Origin: Succinivibrionaceae bacterium WG-1
GTDB taxonomy: Bacteria > Pseudomonadota > Gammaproteobacteria > Enterobacterales > Succinivibrionaceae
Reading direction: 5' to 3'
NCBI GenBank assembly: GCA_000222855.1
Contig: GL995228.1
Location: 7,404 to 18,636, forward strand
DNA: 11,233 nucleotides
Shown piece after piece: positions 3,343 to 10,043 of this stretch (position 1 is its first letter; each line of letters opens with the position of its first letter). The translations under genes were made by a program, and so were the position numbers. The notes beneath the pieces were generated by a model. That model did not search any database and was not told the DNA's origin. It saw nothing but the letters and a program-made list of their open reading frames with translations.

Positions 3343-3551
3343 ATCTATGCTCCAACTAAATACGTCTTGATTAAATCAAATAATAGAAGTTAAAACCTTG
3401 TTAAATAAACCGTAATACAATATATATCAAAATCTCTCTTAAAGAAAAAAAATCATTTAATAACGTGGAGTTGTTAAAAAAATAATACTAAAAACACCAT
3501 ATATATTTTGAAAAAGATTGATTATAAGAGTTAAAAATTTCTTAATAAGCC

Positions 3552-3595
3552 AAAAAAAACTACTATCATAACTATGTATGATAGTAGTTTTTTGG
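3552..3595. terminator. Bidirectional intrinsic terminator: near-perfect 19-bp palindrome AAAAAAAACTACTATCATA / TATGATAGTAGTTTTTTGG. It serves the AGCS symporter gene (minus strand) and insulates the SPFH operon promoter region.
   Basis: A-run, stem and T-run, symmetric, located 28 nt 3' of the stop at 3623. Confidence 0.65.
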
Positions 3596-5120: not shown

Positions 5121-5170
5121 AAAAAAAAAATTATTCAGAATGCATAAAACATTCTGAATAAATCTTTTTA
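5121..5170. terminator. Hairpin with a perfect 12-bp stem TTATTCAGAATG (5131-5142) / CATTCTGAATAA (5150-5161), 7-nt loop, preceded by A10 and followed by TCTTTTT. Bidirectional terminator/insulator between the DGR unit and the symporter gene.
   Basis: Read directly from the sequence. Lies in a 524-bp intergenic region, upstream of the symporter start and about 420 nt downstream of the RT stop. Confidence 0.5.
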
Positions 5171-5501: not shown

Positions 5502-5531
5502 AAAAAAAATACTCACGTCTTACGATGCGAG
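5502..5531 (-). terminator. Weak candidate terminator 3' of the RT gene: on the minus strand CUCGC...GUGAG (5-bp stem including one G.U pair) followed by a U8 run (A-run 5502-5509 on +).
   Basis: Short imperfect stem plus a long U-tract, about 50 nt after the RT stop at 5581-5583. Confidence 0.25.
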
Positions 5532-5580: not shown

Positions 5581-6165
5581 TTAATGTCTAGTTAATATAA
5601 GTTTGTTTAAATATTTAGAAAATAACTTGTAACAATTACCATAAAGCAAATATCCTTTATAACTCATAACAACTTGTCTGACATCTTCATACGACATTTT
5701 TCTTTCTGTGTAATTTTTGCTTAAAAATTTAAATTTGTTTTTAAATCTAGTTTTTGTTTGTCGCTTTACATATTTTAGGATCTTTCCTGTTTCTGTTAAA
5801 ATTATTCTAAATCCTAAAAATGTTACCCCGTTTTTTATTGGTATTATTTGAGTTTTACTGTTCAATAATAATTTTTCATCTTGAGATAACTTATTCTTCA
5901 ACAACGCTAAAGCTGTTTGAAGATACGATTTATCATGATGAATTATCAAAAAATCATCCATATATCTTGTATAATATTTAAATCCCATAGCTTCTTTTAA
6001 AAATCTATCCATGGAATCAAGATAATAAATGGCAAACCACTGACTTGTTTGATTCCCCATTGGTAAACCTTTATTAGGAGCAACTTCATAACTGTCAATT
6101 ATATCGTGAAGTATTTTTAATACTTTATTATCTAAATTTAACCTTTTAGTTTTTCTTTCAAAACA
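5581..6165 (-). CDS. DGR reverse transcriptase, C-terminal part (motifs 4-7: GLPMGNQTSQWFAIYYL, YTRYMDDFLII, thumb). The open frame extends upstream of the annotated Met to 6165, reading ...KTKRLNLDNKVLKILHDIIDSYEVAPNKGLPMGNQTSQ...
   Basis: The ORF track gives 5581-6060. My manual translation of 6061-6165 in the same frame is open and encodes RT-like sequence. YMDD is the catalytic YxDD box, and the SQ-containing motif 4 is diagnostic of DGR RTs rather than group II intron RTs (which have QG). Confidence 0.8.
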   Translation of the reverse strand, partial: CFERKTKRLNLDNKVLKILHDIIDSYEVAPNKGLPMGNQTSQWFAIYYLDSMDRFLKEAMGFKYYTRYMDDFLIIHHDKSYLQTALALLKNKLSQDEKLLLNSKTQIIPIKNGVTFLGFRIILTETGKILKYVKRQTKTRFKNKFKFLSKNYTERKMSYEDVRQVVMSYKGYLLYGNCYKLFSKYLNKLILTRH

Positions 6166-6635
6166 TCATGATCTATTGAATCAAAAAATTTTTTTATATC
6201 ACATTTAAGAAAATACCCATTATTTTGATATTTAGAATAAAATTTTCTTAAAAAATAAGTTAATCTATCTAATGAAAAATGTAACCCTTTTCCTATTCTA
6301 CAAGCACAGTTATCATAAATCAGTTTTTTATCAATCACAGGGGCTAAGATTTCATCACATAAACAATGTTGAACAACTCTATCTTGATAATATAAAGCAT
6401 GTATCAATCTTTTTTTAGGTTCAAAAACATAAAAAGAATAATAACCAGAAATTCTATACGTTCCGTTTAACAATTGTTCCCTAAGTCTTGTTAAATTAAA
6501 AGCTAATTGCATTTCAAAAGAAATTACTTCTATTTTATTATTCTTACTTCTCTTTGCTTTTCTATGAGCTTTATATAGATTTGAAAAATCTGTTAATTTA
6601 TCAAAATCAGATAAAGTAGTTGCAGCATTATTCAT
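6138..6635 (-). CDS. DGR reverse transcriptase, N-terminal part (NLYKAHRKAKRSK..., FEPKKRLIHALYYQDRVVQH, CRIGKG, YFLKCDIKKFFDSIDH = RT motifs 1-3). It ends at a stop that overlaps the downstream RT frame by 28 nt, so the RT gene is frameshifted.
   Basis: 165-aa ORF. Motif content and order match DGR RTs (Brt-like). The stop at 6138-6140 is in a different frame from the continuing RT frame (6165 to 5581). Confidence 0.8.
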   Translation of the reverse strand: MNNAATTLSDFDKLTDFSNLYKAHRKAKRSKNNKIEVISFEMQLAFNLTRLREQLLNGTYRISGYYSFYVFEPKKRLIHALYYQDRVVQHCLCDEILAPVIDKKLIYDNCACRIGKGLHFSLDRLTYFLRKFYSKYQNNGYFLKCDIKKFFDSIDHDVLKEKLKG

Positions 6636-6825
6636 AAAAAATGACTTTATAAGCGTAGTAGGCCGATAGGAGTATAAACTCTAGGTTATATAAACTAAAA
6701 AGCGTATATAACCCTACCGGCTAATATTTACCTTTTTATCTAGGAAGGAAATGATTCCTTTAGTCTCGACTCTGTTTAAATCTACTTAGAATTAAAATCA
6801 CGTTTTAGAGAACTTTGAAACTAAG
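6636..6825 (-). ncRNA. Candidate DGR spacer region between TR and RT, probably part of the structured DGR RNA that primes cDNA synthesis.
   Basis: Non-coding 190 nt lying directly between the TR 3' end and the RT start. Contains a short hairpin AAGGAA-atga-TTCCTT (6745-6760) and a direct repeat AAAGCGTA (6650-6657, 6700-6707). The functional assignment is by analogy to the Bordetella phage DGR only. Confidence 0.35.
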
Positions 6826-6939
6826 GCGGGACGAACACCAACATTTGTATTGTTAACGTTGTTGTTGTTGATGTTACCATCGTTGTTTACATTCTGTACA
6901 TTGTTATTGTTACTCCCAGGCGAGCGCAACCAATAATAA
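6826..6939 (-). repeat. DGR template repeat (TR), 114 bp. On the coding strand it encodes YYWLRSPGSNNNNVQNVNNDGNINNNNVNNTNVGVRPA, rich in AAC/AAT codons.
   Basis: Identical to 7477-7590 except at 16 positions. Every one is T on the + strand (A on the coding strand) in this copy, while the other copy has A, G or C. No indels (offset exactly 651 bp). Confidence 0.92.
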
Positions 6940-6987
6940 GAATTTTATAATCATTCCCTAGATAATGATCATATCAAAATCTAACAA

Positions 6988-7380
6988 TTATTGCCATCTC
7001 CTTCTATCAGAATTCATCCATGCTCCTAATAAATTCTGACAGTCTGTTGTCAATTTAGCAATCTGACAATATTGCTTCATGAGTATAGCATTCATTGTCA
7101 ATGCAAGTTCTGCGTAATAAGCTAACAATTTTATATTTGTCATAGCTTCTCTTTGTAATGACAATCTAAAATTTAAAGCATTAAAATCTCCCCTATTTAC
7201 AAAAACATCATTTGCTTTATATATTTCCCCTATAATATCCAATGCTAAATTTTGCAATCTTGTAACAATTGTAAATCTAAATTGTTTTGGAGATTTTTGA
7301 GTAACTGTGATTATATAACTACAAAGTTCCTTAGCTTTAGTTACGATTGATAATTCTGATTGTGGTCTACAATTGTTCAT
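6988..7380 (-). CDS. avd: DGR accessory variability determinant (Avd-like four-helix-bundle protein).
   Basis: 130 aa, placed between VR and TR as in canonical DGRs. The pattern ...LSIVTKAKELCSYIITVTQKSPKQFRFTIVTRLQNLALDIIGEIYKAN... and the basic C-terminus LGAWMNSDRRRWQ resemble bAvd / S23-associated four-helix-bundle proteins. No obvious SD; the ATG directly follows the hairpin U-tract. Confidence 0.75.
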   Translation of the reverse strand: MNNCRPQSELSIVTKAKELCSYIITVTQKSPKQFRFTIVTRLQNLALDIIGEIYKANDVFVNRGDFNALNFRLSLQREAMTNIKLLAYYAELALTMNAILMKQYCQIAKLTTDCQNLLGAWMNSDRRRWQ

Positions 7381-7386
7381 AAAAAA

Positions 7387-7408
7387 TTTATCGCGCCTTA
7401 CGGCGCGA
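7387..7408 (-). terminator. GC-rich stem-loop between the target gene and avd: TCGCGCC (7391-7397) / GGCGCGA (7402-7408), loop TTAC. On the minus strand it is followed by UAAAUUUUUU (revcomp of 7381-7390). Candidate intrinsic terminator/attenuator and/or a DGR homing-associated hairpin.
   Basis: Read directly from the sequence. A 7-bp all-GC stem is very conspicuous in this ~27% GC context. It lies 69 nt 3' of the VR end and immediately 5' of the avd ATG. Confidence 0.55.
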
Positions 7409-7457
7409 AATTCCTTTGGTCATGAATTGGATGATTTCAGATTTGAAGATTATCAGA

Positions 7458-10043
7458 TTACAGATTTATCCATAAAGCGGGACGAACACCAACAAGTGTA
7501 CTGAGAACGTAGTTGTAGTAGATGATACCATCGTTGTGGACACTCTGCACAAAGTTATTGTAACTCCCAGGCGAGCGCAACCAATAATAACCGTAACCAT
7601 TATCAGTATATAAATCTAATTCTGCTACATAATTTGAAAATTTTGCCCTTTTATCTTTCAAATATTTTTGTACTTCAGTATCATCTAATAACCAAATTTT
7701 ATCATTAGAAACATTATCATCTCTTGTAACAATTTTAGATTGCACAATTTGTTTTTGCTCTGTTTTAGAAAAGGAATTTTCTAAAAAAATATTATTTAAC
7801 CATTTCCTAATGCTTGAATCAGACCATTTATTACTACTAGTATTACCTCTAAAAGGTTTTACATCTAAAATAATATCACTTAAAAGTAAAGCTTTGCCAT
7901 CTTTTACATCTAAAACTCTCCACATTATTGGAGACTTTTTTTCTAAGCTTTCTTGCCAATATTGTCCAAATTTAACAACATCATTAATCTTAATATTTTT
8001 ATTTATACTATTACGAAAATCATTTGCCTGTAAGACATTTAGTGCTTCTAAAGAATCCTCATGAACTTCGTTAAATCGCTTATACAAAAATAATGATTTT
8101 TGTTTTAAATTTTGAGTATATTCATTTAAGCTATTTTTATCTTTAAAAACATACTCATCAACAATTATAAGATTATTAACTATATGCTTATACTCATTCA
8201 AATATTCTTTATCTTTATTATCTTGTGGATTTAATGACTTTATATCATTAAAACATTTTTGTTTAAACTCATATAGCTCTTCTAATCTATTGCTATTGTA
8301 TAATTTTGCAACATATTGATAAAACTCTTGATAACTTCTAAAACAATAATTTCCTTTATCAAAAACTAGTGTTGTCTTTATAACACTATCTAGTTGTTCA
8401 GATTTATTTCCAACAAAAATGTTCATTATATTCGTTAAATCATCTTTTACATTGCTAATAAAAGAAACATACGCAACAACATCTTTATCATATAATTCGT
8501 TACAAAAATTCAGAAAATCTTGTACTGATTTAAAAGATTTTTTGTTTATAACAAAATCTTCCCTACCTGTTAAAGCATAACCTAATCTTAAAGCTTGATA
8601 AGTATCATCAATATTTTGTTCCGATATTAATTTCTTTTGTAATTCAAGAACCTCAACATAATTTTGACTTAAATCCTTGTCTAAAACTTTATTTTTACAA
8701 TAATTTATCAAAAATGCATTAAGTAATTTTTTGGCACTTTTTACAATTTTATCTTGTCCTTTACTACCTAACTTGGCTTCGTTTATTAAAGCATTACCAT
8801 AATCGTTTAAGTCTGTAAAAACATATCCTTGCCAATAAATTTTTGTAAGAGTTGGTTCTAACTGATATAAAAGCTTTTGATATCTAAAATCGTCATTAGG
8901 ATTATTTTGTAGCACCTCCATTGCTTGTCTACAAAATTCTGTTTCTTTTTCTTTATTATTGATATCGTAATGTCTTTCGAGTAAGCCTCGACCTACTTCT
9001 TTTTTACCAAGTTCCCAATTTGTTCCTAAAGCATCAATTAAATCATAATTTGAAGTATATATTGTGCCATTAAACTTGTATGGAATTGAAGTTTGCTTTG
9101 AATTTGATGATGCACTTGCCAAACTTGAATTAAAATCCCCTGGAATTACTTGTTCTTCACCTTTTAACCATTTTTGAACTTCGGTATAAGTCCAACGTTT
9201 ATTAGGATTATTAGCTTCATTACGATTTGAAATATCTTTATAGGTTAAACCTAAAATTAAATTCTTTAAGTCTTGAGGAAAATCTACCGCAAATGGAATT
9301 TTTTGAATAGAAGCAAGACCAGCTAATTGCGAACTACTTATATTACTATTTTGAAAAGGAGTAAAACCTGTGAATAATTCATAAATCATTATGCCTAATG
9401 CATAATAATCAGTCTCTTTTGTAAAACTATTATTAAAGGCTTCTGGTGCTAAATAAGTTGGAGTCATACCTGTCTGAGTAAACACAACAGTATTACCATT
9501 GGTAACAGAACTTATACCAAAATCAATTATTACTAAATTGCCTTCATTATCTATCATTACATTGTCAGGTTTTAAATCCTTATGTAAGATATCTAATTGA
9601 TGAATATTATTTAATCCTGTTACTATTTGCGGAATAATTTGTTCTTTTAATTCTTGTTCAGAAAATGTGCCACAATTTTGCAAGTAACTTCTTAAAGAAC
9701 CATTAGTAAAATAAGGCATTACTACATATGTAAATCCCAATTCTTCTGAATAATAAGATACAGGAGCAACATACTGAGGTTTTGAATTAAAAATTTTTGC
9801 AATAACTTCAGCTTTTAAGGCGTCTTTACGACGATAAAGTTTAACAATTTGTTCTGAATTATCATTTATATCAATGGCTTTATATAAATCAGATTCACTT
9901 GAATACGTATTTAATTTCTCTGTAACATTAAATCGATTATTTAATGTTCTGCCTAAAAGATTAGGAATATCTGCATTATTTTGAGAGTTTGAATTTATTT
10001 TTGTAGCTAAATTTTTTAACTTATTTATTAACGTAGTAGCCAT
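7458..10043 (-). CDS. DGR target protein. N-terminal Hanks-type Ser/Thr protein kinase domain, roughly 400-aa alpha-helical-looking middle region, and C-terminal variable domain (probably C-type-lectin/FGE-like fold) carrying the VR. No signal peptide or TM segment, so predicted cytoplasmic.
   Basis: 861 aa. Kinase motifs are visible: VKLY (beta3 Lys), HKDLKPDN (catalytic loop, non-RD), IIDFGIS (DFG), TYLAPE (APE). The glycine-rich loop is degenerate. The C-terminal ~140 aa (KFGQYWQ...WLRSPG...VGVRPALWINL) ends with the VR. An AGGT ribosome-binding site lies 8 nt before the ATG. Confidence 0.8.
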   Translation of the reverse strand: MATTLINKLKNLATKINSNSQNNADIPNLLGRTLNNRFNVTEKLNTYSSESDLYKAIDINDNSEQIVKLYRRKDALKAEVIAKIFNSKPQYVAPVSYYSEELGFTYVVMPYFTNGSLRSYLQNCGTFSEQELKEQIIPQIVTGLNNIHQLDILHKDLKPDNVMIDNEGNLVIIDFGISSVTNGNTVVFTQTGMTPTYLAPEAFNNSFTKETDYYALGIMIYELFTGFTPFQNSNISSSQLAGLASIQKIPFAVDFPQDLKNLILGLTYKDISNRNEANNPNKRWTYTEVQKWLKGEEQVIPGDFNSSLASASSNSKQTSIPYKFNGTIYTSNYDLIDALGTNWELGKKEVGRGLLERHYDINNKEKETEFCRQAMEVLQNNPNDDFRYQKLLYQLEPTLTKIYWQGYVFTDLNDYGNALINEAKLGSKGQDKIVKSAKKLLNAFLINYCKNKVLDKDLSQNYVEVLELQKKLISEQNIDDTYQALRLGYALTGREDFVINKKSFKSVQDFLNFCNELYDKDVVAYVSFISNVKDDLTNIMNIFVGNKSEQLDSVIKTTLVFDKGNYCFRSYQEFYQYVAKLYNSNRLEELYEFKQKCFNDIKSLNPQDNKDKEYLNEYKHIVNNLIIVDEYVFKDKNSLNEYTQNLKQKSLFLYKRFNEVHEDSLEALNVLQANDFRNSINKNIKINDVVKFGQYWQESLEKKSPIMWRVLDVKDGKALLLSDIILDVKPFRGNTSSNKWSDSSIRKWLNNIFLENSFSKTEQKQIVQSKIVTRDDNVSNDKIWLLDDTEVQKYLKDKRAKFSNYVAELDLYTDNGYGYYWLRSPGSYNNFVQSVHNDGIIYYNYVLSTLVGVRPALWINL
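7477..7590 (-). repeat. DGR variable repeat (VR), the last 114 bp of the target gene (ends 17 nt before the stop). Encodes YYWLRSPGSYNNFVQSVHNDGIIYYNYVLSTLVGVRPA.
   Basis: Relative to the TR, 13 codons differ. Eleven are Asn-to-X changes (Y,F,S,H,I,Y,Y,Y,L,S,L) and two are silent third-position changes, all at TR adenines. The 3' 18 nt (coding strand TGTTGGTGTTCGTCCCGC) are GC-rich and identical in TR and VR, as expected for an IMH-like element. Confidence 0.92.

Follow-up and report, generated by a model that had tools for sequence, protein, structure and literature searches.

A GC-rich hairpin between the variable repeat and avd of a diversity-generating retroelement: a probable target-site element with counterparts in related loci

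Genes and repeats of the locus

The DNA considered here is a stretch of 11,233 nucleotides (nt) from Succinivibrionaceae bacterium WG-1 (assembly GCA_000222855.1, contig GL995228.1, positions 7,404 to 18,636), called the window throughout, in which the minus strand is the coding strand for every gene. It contains a diversity-generating retroelement (DGR), and our subject is a GC-rich hairpin located between the variable repeat (VR) at the end of the DGR target gene and the accessory gene avd (Table 1). The locus is a genuine DGR, comprising a kinase-DUF6273 target, a bAvd, a template repeat (TR) and a reverse transcriptase (RT). The VR and TR differ at 17 positions, 16 of which are TR adenines; the 17th is a C/T difference just after an 18-mer shared by the two repeats. 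A first-pass annotation, made from the sequence alone, had taken the end of this 18-mer as the boundary between the sites known as initiation of mutagenic homing (IMH, in the VR) and IMH* (in the TR). This placement is sensible, as the last change from adenine to another base lies immediately upstream from the 18-mer and the flanking sequences differ beyond it. The 3' end of the target gene reads ...GGTGTTCGTCCCGCTTTATGGATAAATCTGTAA on the minus strand, with the stop codon at 7460-7458.

The same locus was found in two other assemblies. The three strains are identical across ~1 kb except within the VR, and their VR differences again sit at TR adenines; the element has therefore been recently active in the lineage of these three strains. 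In the window, the RT is split near position 6147, where one A has been lost from an A5 run (CTAAAAAGG becoming CTAAAAGG); this frameshift might stem from an inactivating mutation, from slippage or from a sequencing error in the homopolymer.

Table 1. Components of the DGR and of the VR-avd interval (positions in the window).
Feature	Position	Strand	Description
Target gene	7458-10043	-	861 amino acids; N-terminal protein kinase domain and C-terminal DUF6273 domain bearing the VR
VR	7473-7590	-	118 nt; 3' end of the target gene
18-mer TGTTGGTGTTCGTCCCGC	7494-7477 in VR; 6843-6826 in TR	-	GC-rich, A-free; putative common part of IMH and IMH*
Five AATC motifs	7433-7466 (starts 7466, 7459, 7451, 7443, 7436)	-	7-8 nt spacing; from the last target codons across the stop codon
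GC hairpin TCGCGCC-GTAA-GGCGCGA	7391-7408	-	Stem 7408-7402, loop 7401-7398, stem 7397-7391
Tail UAAAUUUUUU (= TAAATTTTTT)	7390-7381	-	T6 at 7386-7381; joins the hairpin to the avd ATG; corresponds to the A/T-run motif after the last hairpin of relatives
avd	6988-7380	-	130 amino acids; bAvd-like four-helix-bundle accessory protein; no Shine-Dalgarno (SD) sequence upstream
TR	6822-6939	-	118 nt; no hairpin after it
TR-RT spacer	6683-6810	-	Sub-threshold match to Rfam RT-14
DGR RT	5581-6635	-	Two open reading frames (ORFs) here, together RVT_1; intact, 351 amino acids, in two other strains

Structure and position of the hairpin

Reading of the minus strand confirmed the coordinates given in the first-pass annotation and placed the avd start codon (ATG) at 7380-7378. 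The stem had been described as 7 bp long and all-GC, and the hairpin as lying directly 3' of the VR. The length is right, but six of the pairs are G-C and the outer one is T-A; the hairpin is indeed downstream from the VR, but at a remove of about 50-64 nt, as it lies 49 nt past the target stop codon and ~64 nt past the end of VR/TR homology (7473). Only 10 nt separate it from the avd ATG. On the sense strand, a C-G pair closes a GNNA loop, and the stretch from the target stop codon to the hairpin reads TCTGATAATCTTCAAATCTGAAATCATCCAATTCATGACCAAAGGAATT (minus strand).

This is the sole hairpin in the window with a stem of at least 6 bp and at least five G-C pairs. None of 300 dinucleotide-preserving shuffles gave a stem of 7 bp or more containing six or more G-C pairs, and 3% gave one of 6 bp or more containing five or more; a chance origin was ruled out by these shuffles. 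The hairpin is identical in the three strains. Its DNA folding energies are almost the same for the sense (-9.9 kcal/mol) and antisense (-9.8 kcal/mol) strands. In RNA (z about -4), the core has a folding energy of -14.3 kcal/mol, which reaches -16.9 kcal/mol with an A/U extension in which the upstream AAGGAAUU pairs with AAUUUUUU of the tail, to within 3 nt of the AUG. The U6 run begins 4 nt past the stem; this distance falls to 1 nt only when the stem is extended by two A-U pairs with a bulge. The hairpin region of the window is covered by no Rfam family, and neither are those of 20 related loci; the one Rfam match worth noting is the sub-threshold RT-14 match in the TR-RT spacer. No hairpin with a stem of at least 5 bp and at least four G-C pairs was found downstream from the TR of the window. 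The 8-mer AAAGGAAT directly before the hairpin (7410-7417) recurs in the TR-RT spacer, where it is conserved as AAAGGAAT(C), at 6754-6761 (minus strand), possibly by coincidence.

Hairpins in related DGR loci

Relatives were collected by an alignment-based scan with Avd, of which there are hundreds of relatives at about 60-66% identity. One genome was retained per species, giving 80 loci, mostly from gut Clostridia, with some from Succinimonas, Treponemataceae and others. We analysed the 51 loci in which a conserved target end (…CGNCCNGCNNTNNGG, encoding RPALW) was present within 420 nt upstream from avd. The first-pass annotation had looked to the positions of hairpins in other DGRs as a check on its reading. 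The VR-avd spacer contains at least one GC hairpin in 47 of the 51 loci, with a range of one to five and two or three being the commonest numbers. The first hairpin usually begins 31-48 nt past the anchor, and the last, together with the A/T motif that follows it, keeps a rather constant distance of 20-35 nt to the avd ATG. The most frequent loops are GAA (25 cases), GCA (20), GTAA (15) and GTA (10), followed by GAAA, GCAA and GGA (4 each). GTAA, the loop of the window hairpin, is thus the commonest tetraloop in this DGR family, and of 120 hairpins, 107 are closed by a C-G pair.

Under a strict definition (C-GNA-G or C-GNNA-G, with a stem of at least 5 bp and at least four G-C pairs), the 8.2 kb of spacers contained 86 hairpins, a density of 10.45 per kb; all were in the sense orientation and none was antisense. 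The other 280 kb yielded 23 such hairpins over both strands (0.041 per kb per strand), giving an approximately 250-fold enrichment in the spacers. The stem sequences are diverse, with 25 distinct loop-proximal arms among the 86 hairpins, and stems within one array are almost never alike. Pairing is nevertheless almost purely Watson-Crick: under a detection rule favouring perfect stems, 586 pairs included one G·T pair and six other mismatches. As G·T pairs are nearly absent, pairing is possible on both strands.

The last hairpin of the family has the consensus CCGCC-GTAA-GGCGG and is followed by TCGCRCGA-TTTTT-GAAAA, a GAGG SD sequence and the ATG. When the 70 nt preceding avd were aligned, the window hairpin fell on this avd-proximal hairpin. 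A covariance model built from 15 relatives only had its top match in the window at 7373-7415 (minus strand; 17.9 bits, rough E value of about 0.01), and the A/T motif was aligned as well. With respect to the family consensus, the fifth pair from the loop is swapped from C-G to G-C in the window, with pairing kept. Covariation within the last hairpin alone is uninformative, because the 15 closest examples all share the same inner five pairs (CCGCC/GGCGG); the evidence for covariation therefore comes from the outer pairs, the G-C swap of the window and the other hairpins. The window spacer has lost ~20 nt relative to the family, including the SD sequence. Judging from these alignments, the lone hairpin of the window is homologous to the avd-proximal hairpin of relatives, and its spacer is a minimal version of theirs, with one hairpin.

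Association of the hairpins with VRs

We compared loci in which VR, avd and TR are found in different combinations. Hairpins precede 37 of the 47 avd genes with a VR end upstream, and 3 of the 24 without one. The three exceptional avd loci, with a hairpin and no VR match, proved to have VR-like ends overlooked by the search pattern; the association with VR ends is strict. Extra copies of the VR remote from avd retain the hairpin module (twice in locus L068, and in L029). TR copies extending into the region of the AATC repeat described below lack hairpins (L031, about 3528-3570; L062, about 1042-1085), and the TR/VR homology there runs beyond the GC-rich block. On this comparative evidence, the hairpins follow VRs, not avd or the TR. 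Such an asymmetry between VR and TR is expected of a signal telling the recipient from the donor (PMC5758913, PMC3240598). The link between hairpin and target recognition made in the first-pass annotation fits these results, in that a GC hairpin downstream from the VR is conserved in the DGR family and tracks the VR, as that reading predicts.

Interpretation of the hairpin

We consider it probable that the hairpin is a structural element of the DGR target site, marking the VR for mutagenic retrohoming. According to this interpretation, the small GC-rich inverted repeat downstream from the VR and IMH would extrude as a DNA hairpin or cruciform, the sense strand folding as a C-GNNA-G "mini-hairpin". 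It would label the VR, rather than the TR, as the recipient, and would raise the efficiency of cDNA integration in mutagenic retrohoming, as shown for Bordetella phage BPP-1. One hairpin would have been left in an AT-rich, Succinivibrionaceae-like host, where relatives have arrays of two to five. The best named matches of a symporter flanking the element are in Succinivibrionaceae metagenome-assembled genomes, which indicates an AT-rich gammaproteobacterial host. An element associated with the VR and acting in DNA is favoured because the hairpins track VRs, because their loops are of the mini-hairpin type, because the T-run of relatives is not placed as in a terminator and, with less weight, because G·T pairs are nearly absent. 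The Watson-Crick purity, the loop type and the tracking of VRs, rather than of avd or the TR, point to a strand-specific structure at the DNA level, and we infer that the hairpin acts in DNA and promotes homing.

Several observations weigh against this interpretation. Hairpins are absent from 4 of the 51 related loci and from about two of six remote VR-like ends. The distance of ~64 nt past TR/VR homology (49 nt past the stop codon) exceeds the reported 4-34 bp (PMC3240598); distance mattered within BPP-1, although it was described as "quite flexible" among elements (PMC3240598). The GTAA loop departs from the GRNA consensus at position 2, where it has T, not a purine, and such repeats were found in just 34% of DGRs in a broad survey (PMC5758913). 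The combination of a GNRA-type loop with an A-tract upstream and a U-run downstream would fit an RNA terminator equally well. The scarcity of G·T pairs is partly built into the detection rule, and short GC stems offer few chances for wobble pairs. The RT is frameshifted in this sequence, and the element may not work in this strain. Finally, the case for a homing role at the DNA level is a comparative one.

The same hairpin might act in RNA as an intrinsic (Rho-independent) terminator or as the attenuator raised in the first-pass annotation, ending most target transcripts and letting a fraction read into avd-TR-RT, which would set the ratio of target to machinery. The hairpin is the top-scoring terminator-like site in a lenient scan of the window; its stem-loop is stable in RNA and lies a short way past a stop codon, the pairing of AAGGAAUU with AAUUUUUU is typical of A-tract/U-tract architecture, and some DGRs have terminators after the target (PMC5758913). 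No sigma-70-like site was found in the VR-avd interval, and the hairpin is just 10 nt away from the ATG; avd transcripts must therefore cross the hairpin. As the hairpin is necessarily transcribed into avd, with U6 four nt after the stem, pausing or partial termination may occur there as a side effect. However, the U6 run is offset from the stem rather than at its base, and in relatives the T-run is 6-10 nt past the last stem, within the conserved CGCRCGA-TTTTT-GAAAA motif, and the arrays of two to five hairpins are mostly without a T-run, so the geometry is not conserved as that of a terminator. The terminator-like sites of the host in the window are of another kind, with AT-rich stems of 13-14 bp and long T-runs at the stem base. 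Furthermore, the hairpins track VRs even where no avd follows them and are missing before avd genes lacking a VR, and C-GNA-G triloops are stable in DNA rather than RNA (PMC13037366). There is no room for a promoter of avd's own, and a strong terminator would silence an element that has been diversified in three strains. Termination or attenuation as the principal function is thus unlikely in our view, and a secondary role of this kind is possible.

Two further explanations concern avd and the history of the cassette. As an RNA element of the avd leader, the hairpin would gate avd translation or protect the end of the mRNA. The extended helix takes in the U-run and ends 3 nt short of an AUG lacking an SD sequence, and the last hairpin and A/T motif of relatives lie at a near-constant distance from the avd ATG. 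We nevertheless give this explanation little credence: the GAGG SD sequence of relatives is downstream from the motif and well clear of the hairpin, avd genes without a preceding VR have no such hairpin, remote VRs that have no avd downstream also carry the module after them (L068), and the RT start is equally devoid of an SD sequence, yet has no hairpin. The first-pass annotation was correct in finding no SD sequence upstream from avd (several other genes of the window have GAGG or GGAG), but its suggestion that this absence may point to a processed transcript is not supported. The starts of avd (7372-7387) and the RT (6627-6642) share the SD-less context ATTTTTTATGAAYAAT, and avd has GAGG in relatives; for these reasons, the missing SD sequence looks like a lineage-specific loss, rather than evidence of transcript processing. 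The hairpin might also be an inert relic, without present function, of a GC-richer, imported cassette. The nearest Avd relatives (~66% identity) are in GC-richer genomes of the Clostridia type and the host is Succinivibrionaceae-like, the other hairpins of the array have apparently been lost and the RT is frameshifted. This we regard as very improbable, given that a perfect 7-bp stem with a loop typical of the family survives, identical in three strains, in an otherwise AT-rich spacer, that the fifth pair from the loop has been altered on both sides relative to the CCGCC consensus with pairing kept, and that recent activity is evident from the VRs of the three strains.

An AATC repeat between the VR and the hairpin

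The target-site element that we consider the hairpin to be may not stand alone, and the most interesting side observation of this work is a repeat of the motif AATC between the VR and the hairpin. The five copies of the window have counterparts in nearly every member of the family, in which the repeat lies between the VR and the first hairpin, begins in Asn-Leu codons, continues past the stop codon and also punctuates the hairpins. The related spacers contain 264 AATC motifs in 7.6 kb, versus 32 ± 5.6 in shuffles, and at least three are present within the first 60 nt in 44 of the 51 loci. No description of this repeat was found in the searchable literature.

We tentatively propose, as a possibility rather than a probability, that the recipient signal of a large, mainly gut-associated bAvd/DUF6273 DGR family is a two-part module. 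Its first part would be four to five AATC motifs with a period of 7-8 nt, starting in the last target codons, and its second an array of C-GNA-G or C-GNNA-G DNA mini-hairpins punctuated by AATC; the RT-Avd complex, or a factor of the host, would read both in single-stranded DNA. The window would then represent the minimal form of such a module, with five AATC motifs and one hairpin. If this is true, current rules for DGR annotation (one hairpin, a GRNA loop and a distance of 4-34 bp) would overlook the module.

Two candidate partners of this region were examined and rejected. A DGR RNA complementary to the AATC repeat was sought in 28 TR-RT spacers, in which GATT occurs 32 times, versus 22.8 ± 4.7 in shuffles; the excess corresponds to the conserved GGAATC..GATTCC hairpin. 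A long-range pairing between GTGGAT (Trp-Ile codons) and ATCCAC after the AATC repeat is present in many minimum-free-energy folds, but is lost in the TGGCT subgroup, and the changes in the window are non-compensatory.

Other features of the DGR cassette

The TR-RT spacer scored 40.7 bits with Rfam RT-14, for which the gathering score is 48.1, and relatives keep a AAAGGAATC..ATTCC hairpin in this spacer. From its resemblance to this model, the region at 6683-6810 is probably a structured part of the DGR RNA (Weinberg 2017; PMC5737381), comparable to RT-10 of phage BPP-1. A promoter-like site with an extended -10 element (ATGGCA, 18 nt, TG-TATGAT) lies at 6968-6997 (minus strand), in the last codons of avd and just upstream from the TR. 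It could give rise to a separate TR-RT transcript; matches to the consensus are common in AT-rich DNA. A T6/T7 length difference was noted just upstream from the RT start. The RT gene is followed, at 5505-5531 (minus strand), by an imperfect hairpin, CTCGCATC-GTAA-GACGTGAG, whose loop is GTAA, as in the avd-proximal hairpin. Together with the T8 that comes next, it looks like the terminator of the DGR cassette; a second terminator-like hairpin, AT-rich and with T10, is located at 5131-5161.

The diversified protein couples an N-terminal protein kinase domain of the Ser/Thr type to a variable DUF6273 (C-type-lectin-like) domain. This domain composition suggests that the target may be a hypervariable sensor kinase, not a surface adhesin. 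In one sister strain (L001, about 9830-9880), there is a 9-nt in-frame deletion within the VR, and in the other (L002, 5772-5782), the target gene is split upstream from the VR into ORFs of 779 and 85 amino acids.

Comparison with known systems

GC-rich inverted repeats after the VRs of DGRs are already known, and the hairpin itself is therefore expected biology. In BPP-1, the VR is followed by an 8-bp GC inverted repeat that forms a hairpin or cruciform (Guo et al. 2011; PMC3240598), and homing requires the stem structure, but not the stem sequence, together with the loop's size and sequence (PMC3240598). Eight phage DGRs had GC stems of 7-10 bp, 4-nt GRNA loops on the sense strand and distances of 4-34 bp (PMC3240598). 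A post-VR hairpin is also required in Legionella (PMC5758913), and the survey of Wu et al., in which such repeats were present in 34% of 372 DGRs, found terminators in a minority only (PMC5758913). The hairpin of the window resembles those described by Guo et al. in its location downstream from the VR of a bona fide DGR target, with none after the TR, in its GC-rich stem of 7 bp, in its loop of 4 nt, which on the sense strand starts with G and ends with A, and in that the stem sequence varies among relatives with pairing kept. It differs from them in its loop, which is GTAA (GNRA/GBAA type), not GRNA, a consensus drawn from eight phage DGRs, and in its distance, which is still 47 nt if a 35-bp IMH of the BPP-1 type is counted from 7490. 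The wider family, with arrays of one to five hairpins that mostly have triloops (GAA, GCA and GTA) and are preceded by an AATC repeat, lies outside the published description. MyDGR searches with exactly the criteria of Guo et al. (PMC6602519), and its standard detection rules would miss the window hairpin. The hairpin thus appears, from the comparison of loci, to belong to the known class of post-VR GC inverted repeats, and the family as a whole to stretch the published definition: in this DGR family, the element is broader than the one used by annotation tools, in its triloops, GTAA loops, longer distance from the VR and arrays. A natural minimal version with one hairpin and an adjacent AATC repeat, in an AT-rich host, would be a convenient substrate for studies of the requirements for target recognition by DGRs.

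Intrinsic terminators share with the window hairpin a GC-rich stem-loop past a stop codon, a U-rich tail and an A-rich segment upstream. They differ from it in the placement of the U-run, 4 nt away from the stem in the window and 6-10 nt away in relatives, whose arrays mostly lack T-runs; in addition, a co-oriented gene of the same cassette starts after 10 nt, and the hairpin is unlike the AT-rich, long-stemmed sites of the host.

A structural parallel is provided by the d(GCGNAGC) and d(GCGNNAGC) mini-hairpins studied by Hirao and co-workers (review, PMC13037366), a motif known from single-strand DNA initiation signals. These mini-hairpins have an extraordinary stability in DNA, markedly higher than in RNA; they need a C-G closing pair and accept GBAA loops, such as GTAA (PMC13037366, PMC3201870). 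The hairpins of the family are likewise closed by a C-G pair, and their loops are of the GNA or GNNA type (GAA, GCA, GTA, GTAA, GAAA and GCAA). The mini-hairpins are, however, a structural motif, not a functional family, and the loops considered here sit on longer, predicted stems of 5-10 bp. The targets of group IIC introns offer a parallel in function, already drawn for DGRs (PMC3240598): a retroelement of a related RT lineage uses a terminator-like GC stem-loop in single-stranded DNA as a landmark for insertion nearby. In those introns, the loop sequence is unimportant and insertion takes place downstream, whereas the DGR family described here has a polar, conserved loop, with the diversified segment upstream.

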